Shown here piece by piece: positions 1,057 through 16,998 of a stretch of DNA of 64,000 nt. This DNA is from a virus. A program made the position numbers and the translations under genes. Position 1 is the stretch's first letter, and each line of letters starts with the position of its first letter. The stretch lies in the IMG/VR virus record IMGVR_UViG_3300043607_000053; one strand, given 5' to 3'. The notes under the pieces are model-generated. The model had not been told where the DNA came from, ran no database searches, and worked only from the letters and a program-made list of their open reading frames with translations.

Positions 1057-1080
1057 TTATTAAAATTTAAAATAACAATT

Positions 1081-1161
1081 ATGAAAAAAGCATGGATCTG
1101 GGTTGGTGTTGCAGGAGTGGCCGGGTTTCTTATCGGCAAATACGCCTTCCCTAAAAAGTAA
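1081..1161 (+). CDS. 26-aa membrane peptide MKKAWIWVGVAGVAGFLIGKYAFPKK (below ORF-track cutoff)
   Basis: Read directly; same TM+KK design as neighbours; A-rich leader; followed by a terminator. Confidence 0.65.
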   Translation: MKKAWIWVGVAGVAGFLIGKYAFPKK

Positions 1162-1184
1162 TAAATGTGCTGTTTTAATGAACG

Positions 1185-1212
1185 GGCGGTGTACACCGCA
1201 TCGCCTTTTTTT
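1185..1212 (+). terminator. Intrinsic terminator
   Basis: GGCGGTG/CATCGCC stem followed by T7. Confidence 0.6.
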
Positions 1213-1225
1213 ATTTTAAAATACA

Positions 1226-1552
1226 ATGAGCACAATAGCAAAAACAAGTAATGCTGCTTGGAAAGAATACAAGGCAGGAGGCGGGACCATCGTAAAATTT
1301 ACCGATTGGCTGCACCGTGAAAAGGAAAAAATGTTTTCAGCAAACGGAGAAGATGATAGCCTTTTGCTCGTTAATCGCAGCCTGAATGATTCAGTACAGG
1401 GAGCGATTAAAGACACATTGAAAACGGGTGGCTTAAAAGAAAAAACGAGCGGTAAAACGCTTTTTGGTATCAATACCAAATGGCTGATAGGGTCTGCCAT
1501 TGTACTTACCGGTGGAATTATTTATTTGATTGTGAAGAGGAACAAGAATTAA
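1226..1552 (+). CDS. Putative virion membrane protein, C-terminal TM
   Basis: WLIGSAIVLTGGIIYLIV-KRNKN. Confidence 0.75.
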   Translation: MSTIAKTSNAAWKEYKAGGGTIVKFTDWLHREKEKMFSANGEDDSLLLVNRSLNDSVQGAIKDTLKTGGLKEKTSGKTLFGINTKWLIGSAIVLTGGIIYLIVKRNKN

Positions 1553-1581
1553 AAACATTGTTCACTATTAAAACTAAAGCC

Positions 1582-1812
1582 ATGAAGACTGTATGGATTG
1601 TTCTTGGTTCTATGGCGGGAGCTGCAGCGGGATCCTACCTGTTTATGACGTACAAGGGGAAGAAAAAATGTAATTGCAGTGGTTCTACCGCTACTACTAC
1701 ACCTGCTACGCCACCTGCATCTATCACGCCGGCACCGCCGCCAGTTTCGCAACCAATACCTGCAACAGCAGCCGTCGCGATGGGCATGGATGGATGGAAG
1801 AGTTATTTCTAA
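1582..1812 (+). CDS. Membrane-anchored Pro/Thr/Ala-rich protein
   Basis: ATG 1582 (MKTVWIVLG...) preferred over the track start at 1480. Confidence 0.65.
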   Translation: MKTVWIVLGSMAGAAAGSYLFMTYKGKKKCNCSGSTATTTPATPPASITPAPPPVSQPIPATAAVAMGMDGWKSYF

Positions 1813-1824
1813 ATGTGAGAGATT

Positions 1825-2652
1825 ATGAATTTCCGTGTTTATACGGGCAGAGAAGAGCAGATTTTGAAAATAGGTGTCCGGACATTGACAGGTAAACCTG
1901 AAAAGATAAGATTGGTAGTTAGCGATGCCGAGCAAAATAATACCGTCTTTACCAGCAGGTATAATGTCTTCAACGGCGACCGGTTTTTCTATGTCCGTAT
2001 GCCACTGGCTCCGAAGATCGCGCTTGTCCAGGTATATAATGAGCAGATAGGCAACCGCCCTCAAAAGGATGAAAAAACTTTTGAGATGATCGATGAAAAC
2101 AATAAGCCCGATAAAGTAAATAACGGGATTTATAAAATGCCACTGGAGAAGAAAATGTCAGTGGTAGATATGGGAAACCCGGAAGTAAAAAGTTTTATCA
2201 CCTATGCGCAAAAATTTTGTTATAACGCCGGCATTCTTGATACCGGTAAATATCAAAGTGCGGATGGGCGTATTACTTTTCTGTATTCGCCAACCATTTT
2301 TAACAAGAAAGACGGCAAGGAAAGCAGCACGCCGGCACGGATAGCAGAAACATCGAAGATCATTGAAGTTTCGCAGAAAATATTTATTCCATTCACTGTG
2401 CCAATGCGCTTTGCAATTCTTTGCCATGAGTTTGCTCACTGTTATTTAAACCTGAATAAGGTGAGTGAGATAGAAGCTGATCTGCAGGGATTATTAATCT
2501 ATCTGGGCCTGGGCTATCCCCGGTTTGAAGCATACCAGGCATTTCTGGAGACTTTTATCGGCACGCCGTCAGAGCTGAATAAGAAACGCTACAATATCGT
2601 CAATCGTTTTATAACCGATTTTGAAAACAATAAATTCCTGATGTATGAGTAA
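1825..2652 (+). CDS. Zincin-like metallopeptidase (candidate maturation protease)
   Basis: ILCHEFAHCYL (HExxH) followed by EIEAD. Confidence 0.65.
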   Translation: MNFRVYTGREEQILKIGVRTLTGKPEKIRLVVSDAEQNNTVFTSRYNVFNGDRFFYVRMPLAPKIALVQVYNEQIGNRPQKDEKTFEMIDENNKPDKVNNGIYKMPLEKKMSVVDMGNPEVKSFITYAQKFCYNAGILDTGKYQSADGRITFLYSPTIFNKKDGKESSTPARIAETSKIIEVSQKIFIPFTVPMRFAILCHEFAHCYLNLNKVSEIEADLQGLLIYLGLGYPRFEAYQAFLETFIGTPSELNKKRYNIVNRFITDFENNKFLMYE

Positions 2653-2911
2653 GACAGGAAAAGGTCTTATAACCGTCGTTTGCATTGCCGTAATTGGCCT
2701 GGCTGTATTTCACCTTACCAACCAGGGCAAAAAGAAGTATGCAAAAGAGATTATAAAACTCAATGGTACCTTCGGGTCGTATGCATGGCTTATGTCCACG
2801 GAAGAAGGGTATTTAAAAGCATGGGCGAATGCGCTTGCAAAAGGCAAGGCGTCTTTTTCTTTTAATAATGAGAATTATAATACATCGGGGGGTAAAAAAA
2901 TAGTTATATGA
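2645..2911 (+). CDS. Small membrane-anchored protein
   Basis: N-terminal LITVVCIAVIGLAVFHL. Confidence 0.7.
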   Translation: MSKTGKGLITVVCIAVIGLAVFHLTNQGKKKYAKEIIKLNGTFGSYAWLMSTEEGYLKAWANALAKGKASFSFNNENYNTSGGKKIVI

Positions 2912-3411
2912 AAGTATTTGATCGGGCTTATCAGTTTTACGAAGGATTGCCTACCTGGGGCAAAGCAGTAGTAGTTATCGGGGGCGCCGGCTTAACCTGG
3001 TTTGGAATATTAAATCCTGTAAGAAAACTGATTATATCCAAACTGGACCAGGCTAAAATGGCAAAGGAAGGACAAAAAGCCGGTGATGAATTGAGCAAGC
3101 TGAAGAAACAGGGTGTAAATCCAACGATATCACCCGCGCAGGCTGAATCGTTTTCCAATTCACTCGTTTCTGCATTTTCAGGTTGCGGAACAGATGAAGA
3201 CGCAATCTATAACATAATGAAACAATTGAAAAACAATGCAGACGTATATCTGCTTATTAGCACTTTTGGGATAAGGAAGTATGACAGTTGTATGTGGGGA
3301 ACGACAGAGAAATCATTATCCGGCGCTATAAGTGATGAATTGGATTGGCTTGAAAAAATGGCTGTCAACAAGACTCTTGAAGCAAACAAAGTTTCGTTTC
3401 AATTCACTTAA
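2908..3411 (+). CDS. Membrane-anchored annexin-repeat-like protein
   Basis: AFSGCGTDEDAIYNIM matches the annexin GxGTDE motif; SLSGAISDEL resembles the annexin repeat end; N-terminal TM. Confidence 0.65.
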   Translation: MKVFDRAYQFYEGLPTWGKAVVVIGGAGLTWFGILNPVRKLIISKLDQAKMAKEGQKAGDELSKLKKQGVNPTISPAQAESFSNSLVSAFSGCGTDEDAIYNIMKQLKNNADVYLLISTFGIRKYDSCMWGTTEKSLSGAISDELDWLEKMAVNKTLEANKVSFQFT

Positions 3412-3420
3412 AAATTTGTT

Positions 3421-4107
3421 ATGCGAAAACCGCTTTATGTAACAGATAGAAAATTCACCGGTGATACCGGTTGTGCATTGGATTACCAGATTGGTTTTGA
3501 AGATGAATGCGGAGGCTATTGCAATTTTTTGGGCATTGGCAACAAAAAGGAGAAGGAAAGACGCGCCGATGTGTTGAATGAAGTGCGTGGTCGTTATCCT
3601 TCGCCAAAAAATTGCGCAGATGCAGAAGCGGGACTACCCAAATTGCGTGCTGATTTGGCCGATGCGCAACGCCAGCTCGATGCTGATCCAAAATCGTCTG
3701 TAAAACCTCGTTATATCGAAGCATATACCACTGTCCTGGGAGAATTTACTACTTATTACAACAATAATTGTCTTACCACTGCAGCAGATGTGCCAGCCAC
3801 TTCTACGCCTGTAATGCCGGGATCAATAAATACTGACCCTATCCTGCAAACAGCAACTCCGAGTGGTAGCACGGCAACATCGTTGGGCAATAATGCCACT
3901 ACTGCCGGCGCCACTGCAGGCGCTAGTGCAACCTCTTCTCCTGCAACCAGCGGAACAACGCCAGCAGGAAGCACGGCCCCTGCAATAAAGCAGAATGTAT
4001 TATCAAAAGTCCCAAAATGGGCTTGGTGGGTGGCCGGTGGATTGGTAGTGGTAACGATCGTGGCAGTTGTTATTAAGCATAAAAATGTTAAACCCGTTAA
4101 GGCATAA
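3421..4107 (+). CDS. Putative virion membrane protein, T/A-rich stalk, C-terminal TM
   Basis: WAWWVAGGLVVVTIVAVVI-KHK; paralogous core with the next gene. Confidence 0.75.
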   Translation: MRKPLYVTDRKFTGDTGCALDYQIGFEDECGGYCNFLGIGNKKEKERRADVLNEVRGRYPSPKNCADAEAGLPKLRADLADAQRQLDADPKSSVKPRYIEAYTTVLGEFTTYYNNNCLTTAADVPATSTPVMPGSINTDPILQTATPSGSTATSLGNNATTAGATAGASATSSPATSGTTPAGSTAPAIKQNVLSKVPKWAWWVAGGLVVVTIVAVVIKHKNVKPVKA

Positions 4108-4108
4108 T

Positions 4109-4609
4109 ATGGCCGTTGAATTATTTGACGATATCGACACTAATGTTCTGGCTTCATGTAAATCATTTCGTGGCCGGGATGAATATTTTAATGCCAATGC
4201 TGCAAAATTAAATCGCCAGGCTGAAACGGCGGCTGATGTTGTCCTTCAGTTTCCCTATCCTCCAAAGGATTGTGAACAGGCTACTACTATCATTCAGAAT
4301 ATTGAGGATCAGATAAAATCTCTCAATGAAAAACTGGCCAGTGGTGGTAATAAGGTTGATAAAAGATACCTGGACGCATATATCGGAATCCGCAACAATT
4401 TTAAAGCCTGGTTAAACGCAAAGCAATGTGTAGCTACTGCCTTGAAACAGGAGGATGATGCATTCAGCGAGCAATTGCAGACCGCATTGAATCAGGAACA
4501 AACTTCACAGGATAGCAGTAGTAGTAAAAATAATTGGATCATTTTCACTGCACTCGGTTTCCTTGTACTGGGTGCAGTAGCCATTATATTAAAACGACCT
4601 AAAAAGTGA
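4109..4609 (+). CDS. Putative virion membrane protein, C-terminal TM (paralog of 3421-4107)
   Basis: ATG 4109; PPKDC...KRYLDAY motif; WIIFTALGFLVLGAVAIIL-KRPKK. Confidence 0.75.
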   Translation: MAVELFDDIDTNVLASCKSFRGRDEYFNANAAKLNRQAETAADVVLQFPYPPKDCEQATTIIQNIEDQIKSLNEKLASGGNKVDKRYLDAYIGIRNNFKAWLNAKQCVATALKQEDDAFSEQLQTALNQEQTSQDSSSSKNNWIIFTALGFLVLGAVAIILKRPKK

Positions 4610-5133
4610 ATTGGCAAAAGGCAATAGGAATATCATTGATTGTTGGGTTAGCCGGTGGGCTTTACGCACTATACCGGTATGGAAAGAAGGAATCAAAAAA
4701 ACTGCAAGACTACCAGGTAGATCTTACCGGTATAAAGTTTACCAGCTTTTCCGAAGACCTGGTGACAATGGATGCTATGTTCCGCATTACTAATAAGTCA
4801 GCGATCGAGGCAACAATCGAAAAATTGTATGCTGACACTTATTTGAATGGTGCATACGTGGGAAATGTAGTCAATAGCGGTGCATGGCCAATTCCCGCCA
4901 AAGGAACATCGGATGATATCAAATTGAGTTTTACGTTTTCGAGCAAACAAATATTAAAAAATATCGTAGGCGCTCTTTTTAGTTTGATCACGACAAAAGA
5001 CGTGCCCTACCGGATAGCAGGATCGGCTACGGTAAAAAGTTTGTTCGTTTCATTCAGCGTTCCTTTTGATTATAGCGGATTTTTGAAGAGTGATATGCTG
5101 GGGACCGCAACACCGGTACCGGCGACAAAATAA
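4606..5133 (+). CDS. LEA type 2 (WHy) domain protein with N-terminal TM
   Basis: FRITNKSAIEATIEKLYADTYLNGAYVGNV...IPAKGTS...Y-I-G pattern. Confidence 0.7.
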   Translation: MNWQKAIGISLIVGLAGGLYALYRYGKKESKKLQDYQVDLTGIKFTSFSEDLVTMDAMFRITNKSAIEATIEKLYADTYLNGAYVGNVVNSGAWPIPAKGTSDDIKLSFTFSSKQILKNIVGALFSLITTKDVPYRIAGSATVKSLFVSFSVPFDYSGFLKSDMLGTATPVPATK

Positions 5134-5149
5134 TATCACACCGAAAATT

Positions 5150-5539
5150 ATGGATAGCAAAGAAATGATGGAAAAAATTGAAAAAAAGATCAGGCAAGGG
5201 ATAGCGAAATTCCAAAACGTGTACCAGTTGCCGGCAGACCAGGTGCAAATTGTATTTATGCTCGATGAAGAAGAGGAAGTGCAGTTTATGACTTGTGTCA
5301 ATAATCAATTAAGGCATAAGGTCAAGCTCTCGGATCTCATAGGAAAAAACATGACCAACTTTCTTGTGCGATCGCATTTGACAAAGGTTATTAAAAAGTT
5401 TGCCATAGAGCAAAACAGCAAGGACCGTAGCACTAATATTATCGCAGGTGTAAATGCTAAAGATGAGCTGTACATGCATTTGAGAAGGAACCATATCCTG
5501 ATCAGAAAAATTGAGGATCCTGACGAATTAAAAATTTGA
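5150..5539 (+). CDS. Hypothetical protein
   Basis: ATG 5150, packed in the operon. Confidence 0.6.
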   Translation: MDSKEMMEKIEKKIRQGIAKFQNVYQLPADQVQIVFMLDEEEEVQFMTCVNNQLRHKVKLSDLIGKNMTNFLVRSHLTKVIKKFAIEQNSKDRSTNIIAGVNAKDELYMHLRRNHILIRKIEDPDELKI

Positions 5540-5543
5540 GTAT

Positions 5544-5837
5544 ATGGGTATGCAGATTTGTACGCAGGTGGTGAGTGCGGGAAACAGTTTTGTGATAAAT
5601 GCGTCAATGGGCGTACTATCTATAAGTTATCAAATGAGCAATGGGACCGGTGATGCCGGTACTATTATCGGAAACTTTAATGGAACCAGCTCTACCGGAA
5701 GCCATTTAACAAACCAGGCGATAACCATTCCTGCAGGCGGTGGTAACAATTTCAGCAGTCCGTCGCCAGATCGCCCCATCGATGGTATTACACTACACTG
5801 TACGCAGGGTAGCTTAAATATCATATTGGGGTATTAA
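5544..5837 (+). CDS. Small beta-rich structural protein candidate
   Basis: Alternating hydrophobic strands, Gly/Ser/Thr-rich. Confidence 0.6.
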   Translation: MGMQICTQVVSAGNSFVINASMGVLSISYQMSNGTGDAGTIIGNFNGTSSTGSHLTNQAITIPAGGGNNFSSPSPDRPIDGITLHCTQGSLNIILGY

Positions 5838-5847
5838 ACTAATTGTC

Positions 5848-6957
5848 ATGTTTAGTATTGCAAAAAAATATTATGATCTTGGTTTTTTGGGAGGCGCTGG
5901 TATGCTTTCTTTCCTGCCCTTACCGGGTATAGGATCCGGCGGTGGTAGTGGCCCCCCTTTTGCGGCTGATTCGGCTGACAACGGGTTGTCAGTTGATCCC
6001 ATTACAGGGCATATAGTCCTGGGCAATGACCTGACTGATACGGCAGCTCTTCTATTGTCCGATCGGGAAATAGCGATGGGTGGAAAATCTATCCAACTTA
6101 CCGATCCGGACCTATTGCTTTTTATAAACAGCAACTCAATTCAGCTTACAGATAATTCCGGTGGAAATAATTTTATTGGATTATTTGTCAGTGCTACTGA
6201 TGCTCACATGGAACTGATAGGCACCGTAGGCGGTGGAAGTGCCCCGGCTATTAAAATATCCGAAGTTGGCTTCTCCCATTCCGAGATAAGAGTAATTGGA
6301 AGTGCTTTTGAAGTAGCGGGTACAAGCGGAACCCGGCTTATGCTTTCGGCTGATTCTGCTAATCAAATCTATCAATTGGGAGATCTTTCGGTAGCAGCTA
6401 ATGGTACATTGATCTCCGTAGAGCCAAGTAATCAAAGAGTAGTGGTTGGCCTTGCATCCGGAAACCGCGTTGCAGATTTTGGAACAACCAATTTTAATGT
6501 ACAACTAGGAGATATTGATAGCGTTGGTAACGATACTATACTAAATGTATTTGATAACCTGCAGAGAATAAATGCTAATGTAGGCGGCATAAATAATGTG
6601 TTGTTTTTAGATGGAACTTCTAAAAATTATTCTTTGGGTGATCCGGGAAGCGATTTTTTGTTGATTGATGGACTTGGATTTCAGACAAAGATTGTGACTA
6701 ATGGGACTACTACTTTGTTCCTGGATCTAATCAGCGGACAATACTCTATCGGTGATTTTGATGGCAGTGGCAATGGAACGCTTTTGACATTAGATGACGG
6801 GACTTCTATTGCGCGTATAGCTGCAACTAATGGCCTGAACCTGGCAGGATCGGCTTATTCGATCAACGGAACGCCGGGTGACAGCGGATCATTTACTGCT
6901 CAATCAGGGGAAACAGTAACCGTTACGGGAGGAATTATAACTGCTATTACGCCATAA
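5848..6957 (+). CDS. Spike/fibre-like protein with ~40-aa beta repeats
   Basis: Repeats YQLGDLSVAANGTLI, VQLGDIDSVGNDTIL, YSLGDPGS, YSIGDFDGSGNGTLL. Confidence 0.6.
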   Translation: MFSIAKKYYDLGFLGGAGMLSFLPLPGIGSGGGSGPPFAADSADNGLSVDPITGHIVLGNDLTDTAALLLSDREIAMGGKSIQLTDPDLLLFINSNSIQLTDNSGGNNFIGLFVSATDAHMELIGTVGGGSAPAIKISEVGFSHSEIRVIGSAFEVAGTSGTRLMLSADSANQIYQLGDLSVAANGTLISVEPSNQRVVVGLASGNRVADFGTTNFNVQLGDIDSVGNDTILNVFDNLQRINANVGGINNVLFLDGTSKNYSLGDPGSDFLLIDGLGFQTKIVTNGTTTLFLDLISGQYSIGDFDGSGNGTLLTLDDGTSIARIAATNGLNLAGSAYSINGTPGDSGSFTAQSGETVTVTGGIITAITP

Positions 6958-6983
6958 AATTTAATCATTATAAAAAAATACAG

Positions 6984-7181
6984 ATGAAAACGGAAATTTT
7001 GAATGCAACCTGCCTGCAGGCTACCGAAAACAAGAACAATTGCACAATCAGATTTGCTTTGGAAGGAGAAAAGCCTACTGATATTATTGCAAGTGCCATA
7101 TTCGCATATAAAGAACCGGATGAGGCAAAAAAGTTCTCTACCAAAAAAAAATACAATATCACGATAACGGAGGTTGAATAA
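6984..7181 (+). CDS. Hypothetical protein
   Basis: 65 aa, A-rich leader. Confidence 0.6.
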   Translation: MKTEILNATCLQATENKNNCTIRFALEGEKPTDIIASAIFAYKEPDEAKKFSTKKKYNITITEVE

Positions 7182-7198
7182 TTAATCAAACCGGGACT

Positions 7199-8146
7199 AT
7201 GAAAAAGATATGTCTGTTGCTTTTGTTGCCAATTTGTTGTTGGTCGCAAAGGCAAAATCTATTACTGGAAGCCACGTTCGACGGTACCAATCCCTTTGCA
7301 GGTTTTACACTTGCTAATGAGCAGTATTGCTGCAGCTATTCCATTAACCAGGTAGCCAACCCGCAAGGACCCGGCCAGGTCATAAAATATGATTTGCGCA
7401 GTACAGATCCTATTGTGTCCAGCTCGCTACGCGCAGAAATACAATTACAGGGTACAGATGCGCCGGAAAGCTCTGAAAGATGGTACGGCCTGCAATATTA
7501 CCTGCAGAACTATGGGGCCGACCCCGGACCGGAAAGTATTATGCAATGGCATGATATAGATGGTAGCTGCCCGCCCTTATCTCTGCAGGTGGCGGGTGGA
7601 CGTCTTCGGATTACCCAGTGTATCGATAACGGCAACACACATAATGATCTTGGCCCTGTTGTTTCAAATACCTGGTTTTCTATTGTCGCACGTATAAAAT
7701 GGGCAAGTACCAATACCGGTATTATACAGGTATGGCGCGATGGTCAGCGGTTAGTGAATAAAAGTAATATCCGGACAAACAGTACCGGGGGAAGTTATTT
7801 TAAGCTGGGTATCAACAAATGGTCATGGGCGCCTCCCCTTGTGGGAAGCTCCAACCAGACTGAACGCATTTTTTACATTGATAATTTCCGCATGGGAAAT
7901 CAGAATGCTTTTTATAATGATGTAGCGCCTGTTCCCCTGGTGGTAACACCAGTTATATGGGGATATTTCCGCTATAATGATAGTGTAAAAGCACTGGAAT
8001 GGGCTACGGAGACGGAACAAAACAATGATCACTTTGAAGTACAGGAAAGCGATGATGGGGCTAACTGGACAACTATTGGCAGTGTTGCAAGCAAAGCGAT
8101 CGATGGTAATAGTAATTCGACAATCACATATTCATACCAATTATGA
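7199..8146 (+). CDS. Secreted polysaccharide lyase-like (concanavalin-fold) protein with a half Bacteroidota Ig-like domain
   Basis: Signal peptide; RAE..., ERWYG, IMQWH, GIIQVWRDG, YFKLGINKW, YIDNFR; C-terminal LEWATETEQNNDHFEVQESDDG. Confidence 0.7.
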   Translation: MKKICLLLLLPICCWSQRQNLLLEATFDGTNPFAGFTLANEQYCCSYSINQVANPQGPGQVIKYDLRSTDPIVSSSLRAEIQLQGTDAPESSERWYGLQYYLQNYGADPGPESIMQWHDIDGSCPPLSLQVAGGRLRITQCIDNGNTHNDLGPVVSNTWFSIVARIKWASTNTGIIQVWRDGQRLVNKSNIRTNSTGGSYFKLGINKWSWAPPLVGSSNQTERIFYIDNFRMGNQNAFYNDVAPVPLVVTPVIWGYFRYNDSVKALEWATETEQNNDHFEVQESDDGANWTTIGSVASKAIDGNSNSTITYSYQL

Positions 8147-8346
8147 AAACGGTAAAAAAGATAATGTTTCTGTCAATGATCTTCTGCACCTGGTCGGTTT
8201 TATTATCGGGCAATTGCAGGCCCAATAGTACAACCACTGTTCCGGATCCTGTGATACCAAAACCAGCAGCGAAGCATTACCGGATCATGCAGGTTGACAA
8301 AGATGGCAACGTAAAATACAGCAACGTAATAATTGTTAAACAGTAA
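8143..8346 (+). CDS. Small exported/membrane peptide carrying the second half of the Ig-like domain
   Basis: Hydrophobic N-terminus; C-terminal HYRIMQVDKDGNVKYSNVIIVK. Confidence 0.6.
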   Translation: MKTVKKIMFLSMIFCTWSVLLSGNCRPNSTTTVPDPVIPKPAAKHYRIMQVDKDGNVKYSNVIIVKQ

Positions 8347-8364
8347 AAAAAAGGAGTTTTTTTT

Positions 8365-8691
8365 ATGAAAAGGTATTCATCATTGATAGCTGCCGCGATC
8401 GGAACTGTTATGTTAGTATTACAACAAGCCATGACAGAAAAGAGCTGGGATTTGAAAATTGTTGGATTCAGTGCGCTTATTGCAGTTATAGGCGCGATAT
8501 CTGTTCAATTGAAAGGAAAGGGAATTTCTTTGGGTGGTATTATAGGCACCGTTGGATATAATTTTTATACCATTTATTCTACCGGACATTTTACTGTTAA
8601 AGAATTTATTATTACGTCTGCATTTGCTGTTCTTGCTTTAATCCTGCCCAGTGTAAAACCGGTGCAGGATCCTCCAAAACCGAACCAATAG
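8365..8691 (+). CDS. Multi-pass membrane protein, holin candidate
   Basis: About four short TM segments in 108 aa, upstream of PG-acting genes. Confidence 0.5.
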   Translation: MKRYSSLIAAAIGTVMLVLQQAMTEKSWDLKIVGFSALIAVIGAISVQLKGKGISLGGIIGTVGYNFYTIYSTGHFTVKEFIITSAFAVLALILPSVKPVQDPPKPNQ

Positions 8692-8739
8692 AAGTAAAAG
8701 ATGTATTTTAGCAGTGGTTATTCGTAGTGAATTAAGGAA

Positions 8740-8967
8740 ATGTGGAATAAGAAGCTGTGGACCGACAACCGGCAGAAATTTCTGGAAACAGAGTATGAGA
8801 GCGCCTACAAACGCGCATTCGCTTCTTTCCAGGAATTTGAAAACAAGATGGACCCTTATATAAGGCAATGTCTTCGCTGCAATGGTTATTACTGGCTCGG
8901 CAACAGCAAACCGTGTGATTGTGAATTTGACCTTAATACGAATAACCATGCAAAAAAAGCACACTAA
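8740..8967 (+). CDS. Hypothetical protein with CxxC...CxC
   Basis: CLRC...CDC. Confidence 0.5.
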   Translation: MWNKKLWTDNRQKFLETEYESAYKRAFASFQEFENKMDPYIRQCLRCNGYYWLGNSKPCDCEFDLNTNNHAKKAH

Positions 8968-9607
8968 AAAAATAGGCGTAGTCCTATTGGTAATACTTGG
9001 GGGGGGCGGTCTTTATTTTCTGTACCGGTGGGTGCAGTCTTCCCGGATGAATGCCATGTCAAAGGCCCCGGATTCTATTAAACAAAGTCAGGCGTCCCAA
9101 CCCGTAAAAGCATCTACGCTATCGATCTTCCCTTTAAAATTGGGATCTCCTAAAAACGACCTGGTAAAGCAATTACAGGGCTATCTTGGCGTCGATGCCG
9201 ACGGTATATGGGGGCCAAAAACACAAGCAGCATTTACGGTTGCCACCGGTAAAACGCAAGTAACCAGCCAGGCTGATTTTGATGCGACGATCGCTAAACT
9301 TCAAAATAGCAAAGCCATTGCCAGCAATAGTGTGCGCGGAGATGATTTAATAAAGAAATGGACCACAAACACCTCGCTTCAACTGGCCACTCTTGATAAG
9401 GTTACTTTATTGGGTGTTGTCAAAGATGCTTATGGAGCGCTCAATCCCAATAATAAAAATACAGTGGTGGGCGCCAATTATAAATTGAACAGAACCGACT
9501 ATACACCGCTTGGAATAACATCGCAGGGATTCCTTCTTTTACAAATCAATACGGGGGCATTTGCTGGCTTATACCGTGCCGACGTAAATAAATTCACTGT
9601 GGCATGA
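8948..9607 (+). CDS. Membrane-anchored peptidoglycan-binding domain protein
   Basis: ATG 8948; TM; PLKLGS...VKQLQGYLGVDADGIWGPKTQAA (PG_binding_1). Confidence 0.75.
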   Translation: MQKKHTKKIGVVLLVILGGGGLYFLYRWVQSSRMNAMSKAPDSIKQSQASQPVKASTLSIFPLKLGSPKNDLVKQLQGYLGVDADGIWGPKTQAAFTVATGKTQVTSQADFDATIAKLQNSKAIASNSVRGDDLIKKWTTNTSLQLATLDKVTLLGVVKDAYGALNPNNKNTVVGANYKLNRTDYTPLGITSQGFLLLQINTGAFAGLYRADVNKFTVA

Positions 9608-10098
9608 CACCAAAAATAAAGATAGTGCTGATCACTGCCGGCGTGCTCCTGGTGAGCACGACTGCGGTATTTGCTTTCCGGAAAAAAAAGCCGGTAGCTA
9701 AAGCAATTAAAAAAGTTGGCAGCATTATATGGCCGGAAGGTGCTGATTCCAGTGAACCTACTACCGAAACAGGCGACACAACGATAAAGCTGGGAAGTAC
9801 AGGCAGGTATGTTGAGCAATTGCAAAATGCATTGAATGATATCCATAAGGCGGCACTATACATGAATAAGAATTGCAATATGGATAAGTGGGCCACTTAT
9901 CCGGGGCCTGCCGTAAGCAGTCAGGGAGATATCCTGAATGTAAGCGGAACTTTTGATGCCAACACGCAGGCGGCTACCAAATTTTATCTGTACCGGACCG
10001 AAGTTGACCTGGACTACCTGGCTATGATCAAGAAAAAGATTGATAAGCAGAAGGCCAACAATGACGTATGTGTATATCCACTGGGAGAAATATTATAA
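9604..10098 (+). CDS. Membrane-anchored peptidoglycan-binding domain protein
   Basis: IKLGSTGRYVEQLQNALN...VSGTFDANTQAA. Confidence 0.7.
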   Translation: MTPKIKIVLITAGVLLVSTTAVFAFRKKKPVAKAIKKVGSIIWPEGADSSEPTTETGDTTIKLGSTGRYVEQLQNALNDIHKAALYMNKNCNMDKWATYPGPAVSSQGDILNVSGTFDANTQAATKFYLYRTEVDLDYLAMIKKKIDKQKANNDVCVYPLGEIL

Positions 10099-10202
10099 AA
10101 ACGGCCCCATGATGCGCTCAGGGACCGTTTACTGTCACAAATCCAATATGACAGAAAAACTAATCGAATAGCACAAGATAGAAATTAAAAATTCAAAAAC
10201 AA

Positions 10203-10598
10203 ATGGCATCCACTCCATCTTCAGCTCAACCTGCAGCAGCCGGATCCTCCGGCGCCGGTGGCCTTGCCAGTGGTCTGAATGTGGCAGCGGGTATTGTTGA
10301 CGTAGCTGCTACCATTGCCAATACAGTAGCTTCTATCAGCGATGCAAATAAACGCAGGTTGATTGAGGCTAATCTTAATGTACTTAGCCAAAAAGAACAA
10401 CAAGCCCTTGCACAGCAGATATCACGTTCAAATAATAAAAACGACCAGGCTACTATTTTAATAAATACAGTGCTTGCTGCCAGGAATGCAGCCGCCGATC
10501 GGCAGCAGCGATCGCAAACGATACAATGGATTTTGATAGGCGCTGCAGGTGTAGTCACATTGGGAATTTTGGCGTGGTATTTAAAAGCTGATGCATGA
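10203..10598 (+). CDS. Putative virion membrane protein, C-terminal TM
   Basis: WILIGAAGVVTLGILAWYLK. Confidence 0.75.
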   Translation: MASTPSSAQPAAAGSSGAGGLASGLNVAAGIVDVAATIANTVASISDANKRRLIEANLNVLSQKEQQALAQQISRSNNKNDQATILINTVLAARNAAADRQQRSQTIQWILIGAAGVVTLGILAWYLKADA

Positions 10599-11179
10599 AA
10601 CGTCCGGCGATCATTATAGGTGGATCACTTGCTCTTGCAGGTGGTCTTTTGCTGATAAGCTGGAGACAAAAAGCCGGCAATCTGGCTGCACAGTTCCTTG
10701 ATATAGCTGAAATCGGAAATAACCAGGATTTCAGCAACCAGGTGTTTAAGAAAATGTTGCAGGACGTAGGATGGCAAGGCGGTGAAGCGTGGTGTATGTA
10801 TTTCGCAAAAAGTATTTATCTGAAGGCGTTTCCCAAAAAGGCGGCACAGATAAATAAAGTTCTTACCGGTAGTACACAACAGAGCTGGGCCAATGCCCTG
10901 GCAAATCCGGATCTGTTTAAGATTGTTACCAGTGGTAGTCCACGTAAGGGTGATATCATAATATGGCAGTCTATAAATAATAGTACGCAGGGACATGCCG
11001 GCATTGCCTTAAAAAAACAAAGGGGGCATGAATGGTACACCGTTGAAGGGAATAGTGGATTCGGTGGTACAAAGGCTGGCCAGGGAGTTGTTAGGCAGAC
11101 GCGCAACCTGGTACCTGGTACAGTGATGGGAGATTTAAAATTGTTGGGATTCCTGCGATTGAAAACAAATATTTTTTAG
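10595..11179 (+). CDS. CHAP-domain peptidoglycan hydrolase with N-terminal anchor
   Basis: AWCMYF, PRKGDIIIW, GHAGI, TVEGNS. Confidence 0.85.
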   Translation: MKRPAIIIGGSLALAGGLLLISWRQKAGNLAAQFLDIAEIGNNQDFSNQVFKKMLQDVGWQGGEAWCMYFAKSIYLKAFPKKAAQINKVLTGSTQQSWANALANPDLFKIVTSGSPRKGDIIIWQSINNSTQGHAGIALKKQRGHEWYTVEGNSGFGGTKAGQGVVRQTRNLVPGTVMGDLKLLGFLRLKTNIF

Positions 11180-11180
11180 C

Positions 11181-11510
11181 ATGGCACTTACAGCACAGGA
11201 AGCATATAATCAGTTAAGCGCAGAGATAAAAAAACTCGGTGGATGGAAACCGGGGAATGTACTTGACGGAATAATTGGTGTTGGTAAAGCGAACACTGAT
11301 CAGCTCCAGCAAATGCTTAACCAGGTGCTACAAAAAAACGGGATCCTGTCTGCAGGTGATGAGGCTAATATAAAAGGCTTACTGGACCAGCAGGAAAAGG
11401 AAAAGAAAAAAAGACAAGCCATACGAGCGAAAAACTTTTTGTTATTGGGCGGTACCATGGTTGCGATCGGCGGCATCATCTACCTGGTAGCGAAGAAAAT
11501 GAAAACGTGA
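11181..11510 (+). CDS. Putative virion membrane protein, C-terminal TM
   Basis: FLLLGGTMVAIGGIIYLVA-KKMK. Confidence 0.75.
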   Translation: MALTAQEAYNQLSAEIKKLGGWKPGNVLDGIIGVGKANTDQLQQMLNQVLQKNGILSAGDEANIKGLLDQQEKEKKKRQAIRAKNFLLLGGTMVAIGGIIYLVAKKMKT

Positions 11511-11513
11511 GTT

Positions 11514-11822
11514 ATGAAAATTTCAAAAGAGCTGATAGAGTTTACTATCATTTTTGGGGGAGCTGGTGTTTTGTACCTGCTTACCAGGCCAGCCACGTCG
11601 CGTAAGCCAAAAACAACTGAACCGGATCAGCAAACGCAAATGAAGAATGCGAACACCGTTAAAGATGCCTATTTGCTTGCCCTTAAATCCGGTGAATCTG
11701 CAGCACGCCTGGAAGAGCTGAACCGGTTAACGGAAAGCAAATATGGAATGCGTGTTTTTAAAAAGAGTGATGGAAGGTATTATGTGATGGACACAAATGG
11801 GAATATTATTAAGCTGAAGTAA
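11514..11822 (+). CDS. Membrane-anchored protein
   Basis: FTIIFGGAGVLYLL. Confidence 0.7.
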   Translation: MKISKELIEFTIIFGGAGVLYLLTRPATSRKPKTTEPDQQTQMKNANTVKDAYLLALKSGESAARLEELNRLTESKYGMRVFKKSDGRYYVMDTNGNIIKLK

Positions 11823-11823
11823 T

Positions 11824-12366
11824 ATGCTTAGTCAAAGTGAAATCGATAAATATAATACTGTGATCATTAGGACCGCAATGAAGCAGGGCCTACCCGAAAG
11901 AATTGCTAAGTATGTTGCTTCACAGGCTGAATATGAAACTGGAAACTATACATCAAATAATTTCCTGAAAAATAATAATGCCTTTGGCATGGCTGTTCCT
12001 AAAACTCGGAAAAGCCGATATATACTTGGTGCGGGATCTGTCAATGCGCCGGCTGCAGAAGGCGCCTTCGCTTATGCCAGGTATGCCAGTATTGAGGATA
12101 GCGTGAAGGACCTCATTGATTGGTTCAATTATAACAACGTGAATTGGAATGCTATTACCTCTCCTGATAGTTATGATGCATTTTTAGTCAGCAAGGGATA
12201 TCATACGTCTTCGCAAAGCAGTTATACAGCCGGCCTGCGTGCTTATTATGAAAAGCTGAAAGATTTCGCTGTTCGTAATCCGAAGACAAGTATTTTAATC
12301 GGTATTGCCGGCGCTGCTATGGTGGGCACCGCTATTTATTTATTTGTAAGGAAAAAATCTGCCTGA
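11824..12366 (+). CDS. Glucosaminidase/FlgJ-type muramidase with C-terminal TM anchor
   Basis: SQAEYETG...NNAFGM...YARYASIEDSVKD; C-terminal ILIGIAGAAMVGTAIYLFV-RKK. Confidence 0.8.
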   Translation: MLSQSEIDKYNTVIIRTAMKQGLPERIAKYVASQAEYETGNYTSNNFLKNNNAFGMAVPKTRKSRYILGAGSVNAPAAEGAFAYARYASIEDSVKDLIDWFNYNNVNWNAITSPDSYDAFLVSKGYHTSSQSSYTAGLRAYYEKLKDFAVRNPKTSILIGIAGAAMVGTAIYLFVRKKSA

Positions 12367-12372
12367 TGAAGT

Positions 12373-12870
12373 ATGCCCACAATCTCACCTACAATAACAG
12401 TCAACACCACCCCGGGCATAACCATTACTATTTCGGTACCGGGCCTTACTTACCAGGCATTGATCAATATGCTTGGAGTAATGGTGTTTGATGTACAAAC
12501 ACTGTATTATTATTCCATGCTGCAGGCACAGTTTTTTAGTGCTATAAAATACAGTCAATATGATCCTAACGGCAACCAGGCTGCTACACAGGTGGTAACT
12601 CCCATCGATCCGCAGCAATATCAAAACAGCGAGCTGGTAGAGCTGGCCGGCGAGTACATATTTATCGATGGTAATTCAGCATTGACATTTAATTTTTTAC
12701 CATTCAATATGATTCAATTTATTTTTTACGCAAAGCGCTTACAAAACGAAGATGCTATTGACGCTGCTGGCTATATTAACAATTTTAAAGAGGTTGAACG
12801 TGACATGGGCATCGAAGGTTTTTTTGAAGATCCAGAGGATGCTCCGAAAATTGAATTTATTCCGGGATAA
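12373..12870 (+). CDS. Probable jelly-roll capsid-like (minor capsid/penton-type) protein
   Basis: All-beta pattern TYQAL...YDPNG...IDPQQYQ...IDGNSALTFNFLP...FIFY, recalled as jelly-roll-like; not verified by profile search. Confidence 0.45.
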   Translation: MPTISPTITVNTTPGITITISVPGLTYQALINMLGVMVFDVQTLYYYSMLQAQFFSAIKYSQYDPNGNQAATQVVTPIDPQQYQNSELVELAGEYIFIDGNSALTFNFLPFNMIQFIFYAKRLQNEDAIDAAGYINNFKEVERDMGIEGFFEDPEDAPKIEFIPG

Positions 12871-12879: not shown

Positions 12880-14124
12880 ATGAAACAGTCCCTTATTCTG
12901 AATTTAATAAATAACACGTCCGGCACTATTCCATTGACGATACTTAGCTCATTTGAATGGGCTAACAGTGTGATCAATGCGAGGACCAGCTATACGTGGA
13001 ATATCACAGGGCTTTCTTTCAGCCCGGGTACGTTTTCTATCCAGGCAAAAGCGGATAATAGCGGATCCTTTCAAACTTATACCGGATTTGCCACTGATAC
13101 GCAATCATTGATAGCAGCTATTAATAATTTAGGCATCGGCACATTTTGGACAATCACATCGGGATCCACAATTTATTTAATCACTTATAATGACACTTTT
13201 GTTTATGCTGACCTGGTGATAGGTTTTGCATCCGTAGGATTCGTATGGACCATCCGATCCACGCCGCAGGATAGTACCTGGCGAAATGTGACGTTTGGAA
13301 ATGGGCTTTTTGTAGCCGTTTCCGTGGATGGTGCATCCCGGGTAATGACTTCTCCGGATGGTATCAACTGGACACTGCGCAGTGCACCGGTGTTCCAGTG
13401 GTTTGGCGTAACATTTGGAAATGGGCTTTTTGTAGCCGTAGGACCAGGCACGCCGGGTAGCCAGGTGATGACCTCGCCGGATGGCATCACCTGGACGCTA
13501 AGATCAACCCCGGGCCCTTCCCTTCAATGGTTCAATGTGATCTATGGAAACGGGCTTTTTGTAGCCGTTGCAAATACTGGAGTAAATGACAGGGTGATGA
13601 CTTCCCCGGATGGAATAAACTGGACCAGCAGCTTTACCCCGGTTGATAATGATTGGATCGATGTGGCGTATGGAAATGGCCTTTTTGCAGCCGTTTCCAA
13701 TAATGGAGCGGGAAATAGGGTTATGACCTCACCAGACGGCATTACGTGGACTATTCGGGCCTCGGCAGCCGATAATGCCTGGGTGAGCATAACCTACGGA
13801 AACAGCCTCTTTGTGGCCGTGGCGCTGTCAGGAGTGGGGAATAGGGTTATGACCTCACCAGACGGCATTACGTGGACGATCCGGGCCTCCGCTGCCGATA
13901 ATAACTGGTTCAAAGTAACCTACGGAAATGGCCTCTTTGTGGCTGTGGCTTCCACTGGGGTAGGAAACCGGGTAATGACGTCTGCGGATGGGATCACCTG
14001 GACCCTCCAGGTATCAGCAGCCGATAACGATTGGGATAGCATTATATATGCAAGTAATATATTCGTGGCCGTGGCAACTTCGGGTGTGGGGAACCGGGTA
14101 ATGACTTCCGGTACTATTCAATAA
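12880..14124 (+). CDS. Spike/receptor-binding candidate: N-terminal virion-attachment-like domain plus 7-bladed Asp-box beta-propeller
   Basis: Seven repeats W..VT[FY]GNGLFVAV...VMTSPDGI[TN]WT; no signal peptide. Confidence 0.75.
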   Translation: MKQSLILNLINNTSGTIPLTILSSFEWANSVINARTSYTWNITGLSFSPGTFSIQAKADNSGSFQTYTGFATDTQSLIAAINNLGIGTFWTITSGSTIYLITYNDTFVYADLVIGFASVGFVWTIRSTPQDSTWRNVTFGNGLFVAVSVDGASRVMTSPDGINWTLRSAPVFQWFGVTFGNGLFVAVGPGTPGSQVMTSPDGITWTLRSTPGPSLQWFNVIYGNGLFVAVANTGVNDRVMTSPDGINWTSSFTPVDNDWIDVAYGNGLFAAVSNNGAGNRVMTSPDGITWTIRASAADNAWVSITYGNSLFVAVALSGVGNRVMTSPDGITWTIRASAADNNWFKVTYGNGLFVAVASTGVGNRVMTSADGITWTLQVSAADNDWDSIIYASNIFVAVATSGVGNRVMTSGTIQ

Positions 14125-14367
14125 CTGTAAAGAGAAAAGATGTACGGATTATTTTACTGTCACCAGGCAGACATACGTTATTACTCAACTACAGATATAT
14201 ATTCTCAGCTAACTGAGAAAGGCCAATGATGGGCAATAACAATAATGTAATAACTAGTAATTTTATTTGTGTTTATATTTTAGTGTGAGAATATTGAAAA
14301 TCCTAATTGCTCAAATTTACTCTCCAGCTTATCAATATCTACATTTTTCCAATAGTTGTTCAAATTA

Positions 14368-14592
14368 GGTAGTGTATCAGTTTAAAGATTGAATTAAATT
14401 GTAAAAAAAATGACTAGCTCAGAATTGGCTATAATAACAAATGGTTACGCACTTCATAAAAGTGTAAAAATAATAGTAGAAAACGATGTGGTTATTGCTA
14501 AATCAGGCTACTATGATAATGGTAAATCTATTACAGTACAGTTTGTTTTAATACCTCCTGCTAATATGCAAATTTCAAACTGAGACACTACC
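14368..14592. mobile_element. 225-bp non-autonomous MITE / mobile insertion cassette (IS1/IS1595-like ends)
   Basis: 16-bp TIRs GGTAGTGTATCAGTTT / AAACTGAGACACTACC (1 mismatch); 8-bp direct repeat TCAAATTA at 14360-14367 and 14593-14600; no transposase. Confidence 0.85.
14410..14583 (+). CDS. 57-aa passenger ORF of the cassette
   Basis: MTSSELAIITNGY...MQISN*; the stop lies inside the right TIR. Confidence 0.5.
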   Translation: MTSSELAIITNGYALHKSVKIIVENDVVIAKSGYYDNGKSITVQFVLIPPANMQISN

Positions 14593-14794
14593 TCAAATTA
14601 TATAATAACCGCTTTTTATAGGAATGGGCAATCGGACGAATGCAGGCCCGGATCCCACGCCGGTCCGGATAAATAATTTCGAGCAGCGCTTTGGCATTTT
14701 TTTCCGATAATTTCTCGGTCCTGTTTTTAAAATCTTCAAACTTCATATACAATTATATAATTAGGTGACTATATATTTAATCAACCCATAAATC

Positions 14795-15013
14795 ATGAGT
14801 ATTAAAAATAAAATAGCGTTGATGTTGTTTGTGGCTGGTGCTGTTGTTTTAGTAGCCTATGCAGCAAATGATAACGATAAAATCGTCCAAATAATGAAAT
14901 GGTGGGAGAAATTGTTGTGTGTAATCGGTTTATTATGCGGATATATTTTATGGTGGTTTATGGGTTGGATGCTATGCACACTTTATACCGGAGAATCTGA
15001 TTGGGTTGAATAA
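14795..15013 (+). CDS. Small membrane protein
   Basis: Two hydrophobic segments. Confidence 0.55.
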   Translation: MSIKNKIALMLFVAGAVVLVAYAANDNDKIVQIMKWWEKLLCVIGLLCGYILWWFMGWMLCTLYTGESDWVE

Positions 15014-15061
15014 ATATATAATCACCTATAATTATTGCCCCCAACTATGGGACTTTTGGAT

Positions 15062-15418
15062 TTAATAATCTAAAGAGCCGTCGGCGAAATCTTCATCATC
15101 CTCGTCAATTTCATTAGCCCTTATCTCGTCCCAACAATTATCGCAATAACCATTGTTTCTAAATTCCATCCCTGTACCGGCTATAAATTCGCCACAACCC
15201 ATACAATACCCTTGCTCTTCTGCATGTTCGCAGCATAGATATTCAATACTATCTTCTTCAAACTCCTTTTTTTCTTCATTATAATCGCCGGGAAGCCTAC
15301 ACGCAAAACCTTTATGAGAACAACCCTCATTTTCGCAGATATGTACATCTTCCTCCCTTTCTTTAGGTTCGTCATGCCACGGTACAAAATCGTTATCCAT
15401 AATCGTAGCTTTATTCAT
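15062..15418 (-). CDS. Acidic Cys-rich (zinc-finger-like) protein
   Basis: CENEGC, CCEH, CMGC, CDNC. Confidence 0.65.
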   Translation of the reverse strand: MNKATIMDNDFVPWHDEPKEREEDVHICENEGCSHKGFACRLPGDYNEEKKEFEEDSIEYLCCEHAEEQGYCMGCGEFIAGTGMEFRNNGYCDNCWDEIRANEIDEDDEDFADGSLDY

Positions 15419-15454
15419 TTGGGGCCAATAGGTGTATAGTTGCCCAATATTAAT

Positions 15455-15481
15455 AAAAAAGGCCCTACATCACAGGGCCTT
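15455..15481 (-). terminator. Intrinsic terminator of the lipoprotein gene
   Basis: AAGGCCCT/AGGGCCTT stem, T6 on the minus strand. Confidence 0.65.
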
Positions 15482-15517
15482 CTTACAAAATCAAAATCTA
15501 CTCTATGAAAACGAACA

Positions 15518-16513
15518 TTAAAAATCAGCCGTCATAACTCTATTGCCGGTGCCGCTGTTTGCAACAGCTACAAATTTTCCGTTTCCATACGTTACACTTT
15601 GCCAATCATTATCGGCTGCAGAACTATTTTGCGTCCAGGTGATCCCATCGGTTGAAGTCATTGCCCGGTTTCCCGCTCCTGACGCGGCCACGGCCACAAA
15701 GAGGCCGTTTCCGTAGGTTACTTTAAACCAGTTATTATCGGCAGCGGAGGCCCGGATCGTCCACGTAATGCCATCCAGCGACGTCATAACCCGGTTTCCG
15801 GCTCCTGACAGCGCCACGGCCACAAACCGGCCATTTCCATACGTTATACTTGACCAATCATTATCAGCCGCCGAAGCGCGGATCGTCCACGTAATGCCGT
15901 CTGGTGAGGTCATTACCCGATCTCCCGTATCGTGCATGGCGCCATTAGCCACGGCCACAAACAAGCCATTTCCATAAGTTACATCGATCCAGTTGTTATT
16001 TGTAGGGGTAAGCTGGTTGGTCCAGTTTATTCCATCGGGCGAAGTCATTACAGCATTATTTGTAAGAACATTGGCTGAGATCGCTACAAATAACCCATTG
16101 CCATAAGCTATATTAAACCAAGATCTGCCGGGCCCCGGGGTTGATCTTAACGTCCAGGTGATGCCATCCGGCGAGGTCATTACCTGATTGCCGGTAAGAT
16201 CTCCTGATATCGCAACAAAAAGCCCGTTGCCAAATGTTACGCCAAACCATTGAGCTGACGAGGCGGCATTACGCAATGTCCAGTTGATACCATCCGGAGA
16301 AGTCATTACCCGGTTGGCGCCATCCACGGAAACGGCAACAAAAGTTCCATTGCCATAAGCGATATTTCGCCAGTAGCTATCCTGCGGGGTAGATCGCGAT
16401 ACCCAGATAAGATTTGCACCATGCGGCTTTCCCGGGGGCGGTTCGATGGGTGGCTTTGTACAGGAAGTAAGAGAAACAAAAAGAGACAATAGTAAAAGAT
16501 AAATCGTTTTCAT
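15518..16513 (-). CDS. Lipoprotein with a 7-bladed propeller, paralog of 12880-14124
   Basis: Lipobox LTS-C; seven collinear repeats. Confidence 0.85.
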   Translation of the reverse strand: MKTIYLLLLSLFVSLTSCTKPPIEPPPGKPHGANLIWVSRSTPQDSYWRNIAYGNGTFVAVSVDGANRVMTSPDGINWTLRNAASSAQWFGVTFGNGLFVAISGDLTGNQVMTSPDGITWTLRSTPGPGRSWFNIAYGNGLFVAISANVLTNNAVMTSPDGINWTNQLTPTNNNWIDVTYGNGLFVAVANGAMHDTGDRVMTSPDGITWTIRASAADNDWSSITYGNGRFVAVALSGAGNRVMTSLDGITWTIRASAADNNWFKVTYGNGLFVAVAASGAGNRAMTSTDGITWTQNSSAADNDWQSVTYGNGKFVAVANSGTGNRVMTADF

Positions 16514-16626: not shown

Positions 16627-16998
16627 ATGAAAAAAAGTGTAAGCGTGTTGTTAGTGATCATAGTAATGATCACGTTAGCAACGGTGTCGTATGCGGGACC
16701 GCCCCCTGGTAAGCCACCTAAATCACAGAAAATCGTATTAAAGAAAAGTATTGATCAAAGTGAAATCGTAAAAACCGCCTTTTACCAGCATCTCCGACCG
16801 CAGGAGATCCTGGACGATGTAGGGAAGTATGATTTTATACCTGGATCAATTCATGTGGATCAGCAACCTGGCGATATTGTGCCGGCTACTATGGCTAAAA
16901 TGAAACCTGTAAAATCTCTTAGCTTCTTTGGGCACGAATATGGCCGAACGGGTGTTAAGAAGATTTATCGATTAATTCGACCTCCCACATTAACTTAG
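16627..16998 (+). CDS. Secreted hypothetical protein
   Basis: Signal peptide ending VSYA; own terminator. Confidence 0.6.
   Translation: MKKSVSVLLVIIVMITLATVSYAGPPPGKPPKSQKIVLKKSIDQSEIVKTAFYQHLRPQEILDDVGKYDFIPGSIHVDQQPGDIVPATMAKMKPVKSLSFFGHEYGRTGVKKIYRLIRPPTLT

Follow-up and report, generated by a model that had tools for sequence, protein, structure and literature searches.

One seven-bladed propeller on a putative spike and on a convergent lipoprotein in an uncultured virus-like element from soil

Two inverted copies of one propeller

The IMG/VR virus record IMGVR_UViG_3300043607_000053, an uncultured element whose source is a soil metagenome, was analysed as a single window of 64,000 nucleotides (nt). 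Two convergent open reading frames (ORFs) on opposite strands of this window, gene A and gene B, encode the same seven-bladed beta-propeller. Gene A (12880..14124, plus strand) codes for a putative spike or receptor-binding protein of 414 amino acids (aa) and is the final gene of a co-directional operon. Its residues 1-120 (12880..13239) form an N-terminal anchor domain, in which a conserved arm with an invariant N-N-T motif is followed by a small alpha/beta domain, and from residue 121 onwards the protein consists of seven repeats of ~42 aa that all contain an Asp-box (S-P-D-G-I-T-W) and a strand reading Y-G-N-G-x-F-V-A-V. The AlphaFold2 (AF2) model and a matrix of blade identities identify this head (13240..14109) as a seven-bladed Asp-box propeller. 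Gene B (15518..16513, minus strand; 331 aa) codes for a lipoprotein: a signal peptide with lipobox L-T-S-C (residues 1-18, 16460-16513) leads into a Pro-rich linker (residues 19-34), followed by a seven-bladed propeller (residues 35-329, 15527-16411) that is in register with the head of A.

An earlier note on this DNA, made from its letters alone, had described the two genes as blade-by-blade collinear copies in inverted orientation with long identical runs, and this description holds. By BLASTP the two proteins are 75% identical over 295 aa (E=1e-153), collinear and in register; their codon-aligned genes are 74% identical in nucleotides overall and 59% at third positions. In the nucleotide matrix of all 14 blades, each A blade is nearest to the same-numbered B blade, with identities of 72, 75, 70, 73, 81, 87 and 63% for blades 1 to 7, and the fifth and sixth blades of the two genes cluster tightly together (79-87%). 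Two exact inverted matches stand out, one of 37 nt in the Asp-box of blade 2 (13338..13374 on the plus strand against 16277-16313; 37/37 nt) and one of 47 nt in blade 6 (13864..13910 on the plus strand against 15726-15772; 47/47 nt), the latter being the core of the gene-conversion tract discussed below. The longest identical run exceeds what is expected by chance (p=0.002, codon-column permutation). There is no third propeller copy within the window. In a tree of 80 homologous propellers, A and B are exclusive sisters with support of 100/100, and the next-best database match to either is ~66% identical. Exact-protein look-ups of A and B returned no match, nor did a megablast search of window positions 5-17 kb against GenBank phages.

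The differences between the two copies were also said to concentrate in the loops between strands, which the AlphaFold model does not bear out: A and B differ at 21% of strand positions and 27% of non-strand positions (Fisher p=0.27), yet all three insertions or deletions fall in loops, and the Asp-box loops are invariant. The placement of A at the end of its operon and its lack of a signal peptide are confirmed, whereas the labels of a virion-type spike and of a structural operon go beyond these observations and are used below as putative assignments.

The AF2 model of the A head has a predicted local distance difference test score (pLDDT) of 90 and contains 28 strands. Both propellers have six full Asp-boxes, with the first blade closed by the C-terminal strand. 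The closest solved fold found with Foldseek is the seven-bladed Ycf48 (5ojr, 2xbg; E=1.5e-12, target-normalised template modelling score 0.70-0.73), and at the sequence level the propeller has no match to any solved structure. With the Pfam model DUF6242, whose gathering cut-off is 29, B scores 28.6 and A 23.4; the short EPTP repeat model exceeds its cut-off, and an Atlas feature search led to DUF6242_C and PSII_BNR clusters, with DUF6242_C at 0.94. Like A and B, propellers of the Ycf48/HCF136 type and the DUF6242_C BNR propellers have seven 42-aa blades with an S-x-D-G-x-T-W Asp-box; they differ from the module described here in that the latter is joined to a new anchor domain (in A) or to a lipoprotein leader (in B).

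The propeller family is very large, with more than 7,600 members recovered at identities of typically 55-66%, from sources that include bacteria of the Candidate Phyla Radiation (CPR), Bacteroidota and Alphaproteobacteria, and the fusion partners comprise phage tail-fibre N-termini (DUF2793, Sipho_tail), the endosialidase chaperone (Peptidase_S74), fn3 arrays and sorting domains of the type IX secretion system (T9SS). Tandem arrays of three to four fibre genes were seen on two further contigs (L007, 8207-16010; L009, 8233-13495), which bear hallmarks of giant viruses, namely a capsid gene of nucleocytoplasmic large DNA viruses (NCLDV), an HMG-box protein and a protein kinase. The fibre heads on these contigs are 58-64% identical to the A/B propeller. 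Since heads of giant-virus fibres are this similar to the propeller of a bacterial element, the comparison indicates that the module crosses the divide between viruses of prokaryotes and of eukaryotes. The wide and varied fusions, together with the fibre arrays, likewise indicate that the propeller is a mobile head for adhesion or receptor binding.

Exchange between the copies and recurrence of the pair

The contig L020, ~86% identical in nucleotides to window positions 12635-24486, keeps both genes (A' and B'). Between the window and L020 the ratio of non-synonymous to synonymous substitution rates (dN/dS) is 0.079 for A and 0.072 for B, i.e., both copies are under strong purifying selection. 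The paralogs are more alike within one genome (74.1 and 73.9% nucleotide identity) than across genomes (70.5 and 72.4%). Of the informative sites, 101 group the orthologs together and 22 are concerted, with one state common to A and B and another to A' and B', against 5 cross sites (binomial p=7.6e-4); 13 of the 22 concerted sites are synonymous. Blade 6, which holds the 47-nt run, contributes 7 concerted, 2 orthology and 0 cross sites, and its states in L020 differ from the family consensus in both paralogs; derived changes were therefore copied between spike and lipoprotein, including the non-synonymous changes I/L, T/S and N/S. Because concerted sites outnumber cross sites and blade 6 contains such a tract, we regard gene conversion between A and B after the split of the two strains as real on the evidence of these alignments. 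In the source runs, the unitig with the shared 47-mer has double depth; no alternative joint showed up among the Logan unitigs, which break at shared 31-mers and are identical for either orientation of the segment.

The earlier note had offered B as a donor for inversion or gene conversion and had proposed a comparison of relatives for concerted evolution. The excess of 22 concerted over 5 cross sites in the L020 comparison agrees with the conversion part of that proposal, while the intact, selected and export-signalled B gene does not look like a silent cassette. No resolvase, invertase or recombinase family was detected in Pfam scans of the ~109 window ORFs. A diversity-generating retroelement was considered and rejected, the reverse transcriptase family being absent among the window ORFs.

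The anchor domain of A defines a family of its own. HMMER searches against 1.84 billion representatives recovered at least 159 proteins at E<=1e-3, with the domain N-terminal in nearly all of them; only this exhaustive search found relatives, as a word-indexed search with the first 120 residues of A returned none. In the AF2 model (pLDDT 85.8) the domain combines a conserved, flexible arm with a small alpha/beta unit, and for it no significant fold match was found in PDB or BFVD; a weak resemblance to FliD or to sheath insertion domains was seen. The heads that follow it vary from ~100 to ~730 aa. That of P0223 is a second Asp-box propeller, 44% identical to the head of A, those of P0213, P0220 and P0221 are leucine-rich repeat (LRR) heads, and others are small beta domains or Thr/Ser-rich stalks with a small knob. 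This modular anchor-plus-head design makes it a well-motivated inference that A is the spike of a virus-like element.

In every relative with sufficient context, including L012, L013, L015, L021 and L023, the anchor protein is encoded by the last gene of the operon and is preceded by genes for a glucosaminidase and a protein of 140-165 aa. The syntenic operon of the relatives also encodes LEA_2, Gly-rich fibre-like and CHAP or M23 hydrolase proteins. The contigs are 32-133 kb long, some are IMG/VR entries, and for one genome (G003) the CheckV completeness estimate is 90%. Anchor patterns found no relative among GTDB representative genomes. The anchor family marks out soil and freshwater elements that form one coherent and for the most part unannotated group. 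Anchor-family spikes on IMG/VR contigs (L017, 9989-11071; L019, 9989-10990, G003) have a stalk of ~200 aa made nearly entirely of Thr/Ser/Pro repeats; genes resembling glycosyltransferases come next, and the window, too, encodes many glycosyltransferases. The Thr/Ser/Pro stalks and the nearby glycosyltransferases suggest that spikes of this family are glycosylated.

The pairing of a spike with a lipoprotein that carries its head recurs in two more distant family members, there with a second, unrelated fold. In L011 the gene for a 267-aa lipoprotein abuts the spike gene on the opposite strand, and the whole mature form of this lipoprotein matches the spike's LRR head from one end to the other, at 33% identity across 251 aa (E=6e-30). 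Its leader, A-T-S-C followed by T-K-E-P...K-P-G-K, is similar to that of B (L-T-S-C, T-K-P-P...P-G-K). In L023, which comes from an NCBI metagenome-assembled genome, a convergent lipoprotein gene follows the spike gene and encodes a protein with the Ig-like, LRR and C-terminal-cap layout of the spike head behind a leader that resembles those of B and of the L011 partner. With both fold types the duplicated part extends from the boundary between anchor and head to the C-terminus. The gap between the two genes is 1.4 kb in the window, ~0.3 kb in L020 and ~80 bp in L023, and the genes abut in L011. The LRR spike and lipoprotein of a pair are 33-40% identical. Both the LRR head and the propeller are widespread mobile modules found on fibre proteins of phages and giant viruses; a DNA pattern for the C-terminal cap revealed ten other viral proteins with the LRR head, none of which has the anchor domain or is paired. 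On this comparative evidence, the recurrence of the pairing with two head folds supports a functional coupling of spike and lipoprotein.

Gene surroundings and nature of the element

Gene B starts with M-K, a hydrophobic stretch and the lipobox at residues 15-18. The lipobox noticed earlier is canonical, and it is kept in L020. B was also said to have its own promoter and terminator. The terminator part stands, as a hairpin of 13 pairs with a T run (15456..15484, minus strand) lies directly after the B stop codon. The promoter part is less clear: an AT-rich intergenic region of 113 bp upstream of B is a plausible promoter, but a consensus scan scored it no better than shuffled sequence. Pfam and PHROG scans of B gave propeller-type matches only and no match to an exclusion family.

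The region between A and B differs between strains. A segment of 225 bp (14368..14592) is absent from the ~86%-identical L020, whose flanks there overlap by 8 bp, as expected of a target duplication. This bears out a separate earlier claim of a recent small element without a transposase, and the insertion is not part of the mechanism discussed below. A strain-specific segment of 697 bp (14748..15444), also absent from L020, contains ORFs for a small membrane protein (14795-15013, plus strand) and for a Cys-rich, very acidic protein of 118 aa (15062-15418, minus strand). The divergent neighbour of B codes for a secreted protein of 123 aa (16627..16998, plus strand), which has a P-P-P-G-K-P linker motif in common with B. 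A weak homolog of this protein (26% identity, E=7e-6) lies at the same place in L011 (2346-2738).

Upstream of A, the co-directional operon (57..12870, plus strand) is syntenic in relatives and codes for many small membrane proteins. It includes, all on the plus strand, genes for a LEA_2 protein (4606-5133), a Gly-rich fibre-like protein of 369 aa (5848-6957), a polysaccharide lyase (7199-8146), a CHAP hydrolase (10595-11179), a glucosaminidase (11824-12366) and, directly before A, the conserved 165-aa partner (12373-12870). At 73-84% identity, the final ~25 residues of the 369-aa protein recur in unrelated IMG/VR contigs (L001-L006), and a search for relatives with the whole protein returned only this 24-aa C-terminal motif in unrelated contigs; the end of the protein looks like a conserved motif common to viral fibre proteins. 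Atlas models of the 369-aa and 165-aa proteins as capsid candidates were of low confidence and gave no jelly-roll match, which leaves an earlier idea of a single jelly-roll protein at 12373-12870 neither strengthened nor weakened. In L021 (8296-8889) and L022 (402-959) a protein with an Mtd_N domain, the N-terminus of the Bordetella phage tropism determinant, is encoded in the syntenic operon two genes before the spike, and further upstream lies a gene for an 821-aa beta-helix, depolymerase-like protein.

A conserved AAA_10/DUF87 (HerA/VirB4-like) ATPase of 577-608 aa is encoded in the window (45442-47175), L013 (13680-15413) and L015 (14013-15839). The 577-aa window protein matches AAA_10, its L015 ortholog matches DUF87, and a PHROG labelled 'terminase large subunit' is matched weakly. 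The ATPase is the sole candidate for a DNA-translocating motor in the family. A search for relatives with the window ATPase as query returned none. G003 carries RecT, a Holliday-junction resolvase, HNH endonucleases, endolysins and tail-fibre-like PHROG families. Only 4 of 59 genes have a Shine-Dalgarno motif, a near absence like that in Bacteroidota, and the host is therefore probably a member of this phylum.

Possible role of the lipoprotein

Our preferred interpretation, to which we assign a probability of about 0.45, is that B is a cognate superinfection-exclusion lipoprotein that acts at the level of the receptor. A would be the receptor-binding spike of an uncultured virus-like element, with the conserved anchor docked to the particle and the C-terminal head exchangeable, and B would be a moron-like accessory gene, convergent with and just downstream of A, which presents the same head on a lipoprotein. 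An infected or carrier cell would export B to its envelope, where the head of B would bind the ligand of the spike in cis. Superinfection by the same or related particles would thereby be blocked, and the wasteful re-adsorption of progeny prevented, i.e., by receptor interference. Where a lineage has an LRR spike head the lipoprotein would have an LRR head, and a propeller on the spike would go with a propeller on the lipoprotein, the two heads co-varying because the same specificity must be kept. Among close strains, short conversion tracts between the inverted copies would pass changes from head to head.

Known exclusion systems provide a precedent for such an arrangement. In phage T5, the lipoprotein Llp blocks the receptor to which the receptor-binding protein pb5 attaches, and its gene is the downstream neighbour of the pb5 gene (PMC9586334); receptor-binding-protein loci of Drexlerviridae carry cognate exclusion lipoproteins (PMC8594841). 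Like Llp of T5 and Cor of T1/phi80-like phages, B is a lipobox lipoprotein encoded beside and downstream of a receptor-binding gene (a putative one in the case of B), and all are accessory and apparently cognate to the receptor type; the known ones stop adsorption at the receptor level. Llp and Cor are small (about 60-80 aa when mature) and unrelated to their receptor-binding protein, with Llp jamming FhuA from the periplasmic side, whereas B has 331 aa, is a paralog of the spike head over its entire mature length, and exchanges sequence with A by gene conversion. B is thus not a member of the Llp/Cor group by homology or size, and would be a functional analogue in its logic. The same concept is found in retroviral Env interference, where a membrane-anchored copy of the viral receptor-binding domain in the infected cell occupies the receptor. 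Endogenous retroviral env genes can block exogenous virus. The retroviral case differs in that it concerns enveloped viruses of eukaryotes and the env gene itself or an endogenous copy, whereas a separate paralog with a bacterial lipoprotein anchor is present here. No description of a phage exclusion protein as a paralog of the phage's own receptor-binding head turned up in a limited literature search, which is not proof of novelty.

Several observations weigh against receptor interference. Surface lipoproteins of Bacteroidota have an export signal, C-X-K-(D/E)2-X, at the +1 cysteine (PMC5080379). B reads C-T-K-P-P-I-E, with K at +3 and P-P in place of the acidic pair; its ortholog B' in L020 (C-T-K-Q-P-I-E) likewise has K at +3 without the acidic pair, and the match is partial in the partners of L011 (C-T-K-E-P) and L023 (C-K-K-E-A-A-D). 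Because the acidic residues for surface export are missing, B may face the periplasm, and masking of a surface receptor by the spike's own head would then be harder to picture. The idea that B is a receptor-masking copy of the head, already proposed in the earlier note, is therefore strengthened on the side of functional coupling, by the recurrence with LRR heads and by purifying selection, and weakened on the side of localization. Among the LRR heads, a spike and lipoprotein of one element do not resemble each other clearly more than those drawn from different elements do. Five relatives (L012, L013/14, L015, L017-19/G003 and L021/22) have no lipoprotein twin within 10 kb of their spike, which indicates that the lipoprotein gene is accessory, in keeping with its separate terminator and its location beyond the operon. 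The assignment of A as a virion spike is something we infer from architecture alone, and no capsid, portal, terminase or tail genes were recognised in the window or in G003 with Pfam and PHROGs. PRD1-like tailless dsDNA phages with a membrane, whose vertex spikes were one comparison for A, have a jelly-roll major capsid protein together with a small packaging ATPase of the FtsK/HerA type, and the only ATPase seen here is the 577-aa protein described above.

B might instead be a second, lipid-anchored attachment protein, located in the particle membrane or on the surface of a carrier cell where it binds neighbouring cells in adhesion and spread, and not an exclusion factor. Its head is the same as that of the spike, the wealth of small membrane proteins in the operon suggests a particle that contains a membrane, and the same propeller serves as an adhesin head on surface proteins of CPR bacteria and on those secreted by the T9SS. 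We consider such a role unlikely because B is convergent, lies outside the operon and has its own terminator, and because it is missing in most relatives, which would be unusual for a structural component. A newly made lipoprotein sits at first in the cytoplasmic membrane, on its periplasmic side, and in a membrane enclosed by a capsid this side would become the lumen.

The pair could also have arisen by ordinary local duplication of a popular surface domain, with B just a further glycan-binding lipoprotein of the envelope that has no functional link to A, and conversion a passive by-product of the similarity in sequence. The enormous and promiscuous propeller family, with its >7,600 hits and many fusions, is compatible with this, tandem paralog arrays are common, and repeats with 74-87% identity would be expected to undergo conversion. 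What makes such an origin improbable is that L011 and L023 have the same pairing in the same genomic position, with a similar leader and an unrelated fold; that the duplicated segment, with both folds, starts exactly at the anchor/head boundary and reaches the C-terminus; and that both copies are under strong purifying selection.

A further proposal is that the element is plasmid-like or conjugative, the operon encoding an envelope-spanning transfer apparatus with A as mating adhesin and B as a TraT-like exclusion lipoprotein. The window does encode typical plasmid cargo in the form of ParA, a DnaA-C-like protein, a large RadC-methylase protein and an SNF2 helicase, and the 577-aa AAA_10 ATPase (DUF87 in L015) is like the VirB4-like ATPases of some type IV systems. 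Peptidoglycan hydrolases of the CHAP or M23 type are also found in type IV secretion operons, and those in the operon are compatible with such a system. We nevertheless find this proposal very doubtful, since no relaxase, coupling protein or Tra family was detected in the window with Pfam and PHROGs, since some relatives are in IMG/VR, one at 90% CheckV completeness and with the RecT, resolvase, HNH, endolysin and tail-fibre-like families noted above, and since the operon encodes a lyase of the depolymerase type or a beta-helix protein as well as an Mtd_N domain.

Invertible tail fibres (Gin of Mu, Cin of P1) and the pilE/pilS system likewise have inverted or homologous copies close to each other and transfer sequence between them; they differ from the present locus in that no invertase was detected here and that the second copy is complete, selected, export-signalled and a single donor. 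That B is mainly a recombination partner, from which inversion or conversion shuffles blades into the spike to shift host range without an invertase, is hardly to be expected: the copies are indeed inverted and have the exact runs of 37 and 47 nt in common, and conversion tracts that include non-synonymous changes do post-date strain divergence, but B has a start codon, signal peptide, lipobox, terminator and a dN/dS of 0.07, as befits an expressed protein and not a silent cassette, a single donor gives little diversity, no invertase or recombinase family was found among the ~109 window ORFs, and the LRR pairs keep the pairing at an identity too low for homologous exchange.

Returning to receptor interference, we tentatively extend it to the whole family: in these large (about 50-130 kb) virus-like elements without recognisable capsid genes, which would be a family not described before, the lipoprotein twin would be a receptor-interference device, the bacterial equivalent of the superinfection resistance that retroviral Env confers, and one that is kept matched to the spike across swaps of head fold, partly by conversion. 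If this is true, it would constitute a new route to superinfection exclusion in bacterial viruses, in which the virus places its own receptor-binding domain on a lipid anchor and does not use an unrelated jammer. The rule that the spike head equals the body of the adjacent lipoprotein would then allow receptor-binding domains to be identified from sequence alone in uncultured viruses, and would offer matched pairs of soluble binders for receptor discovery.

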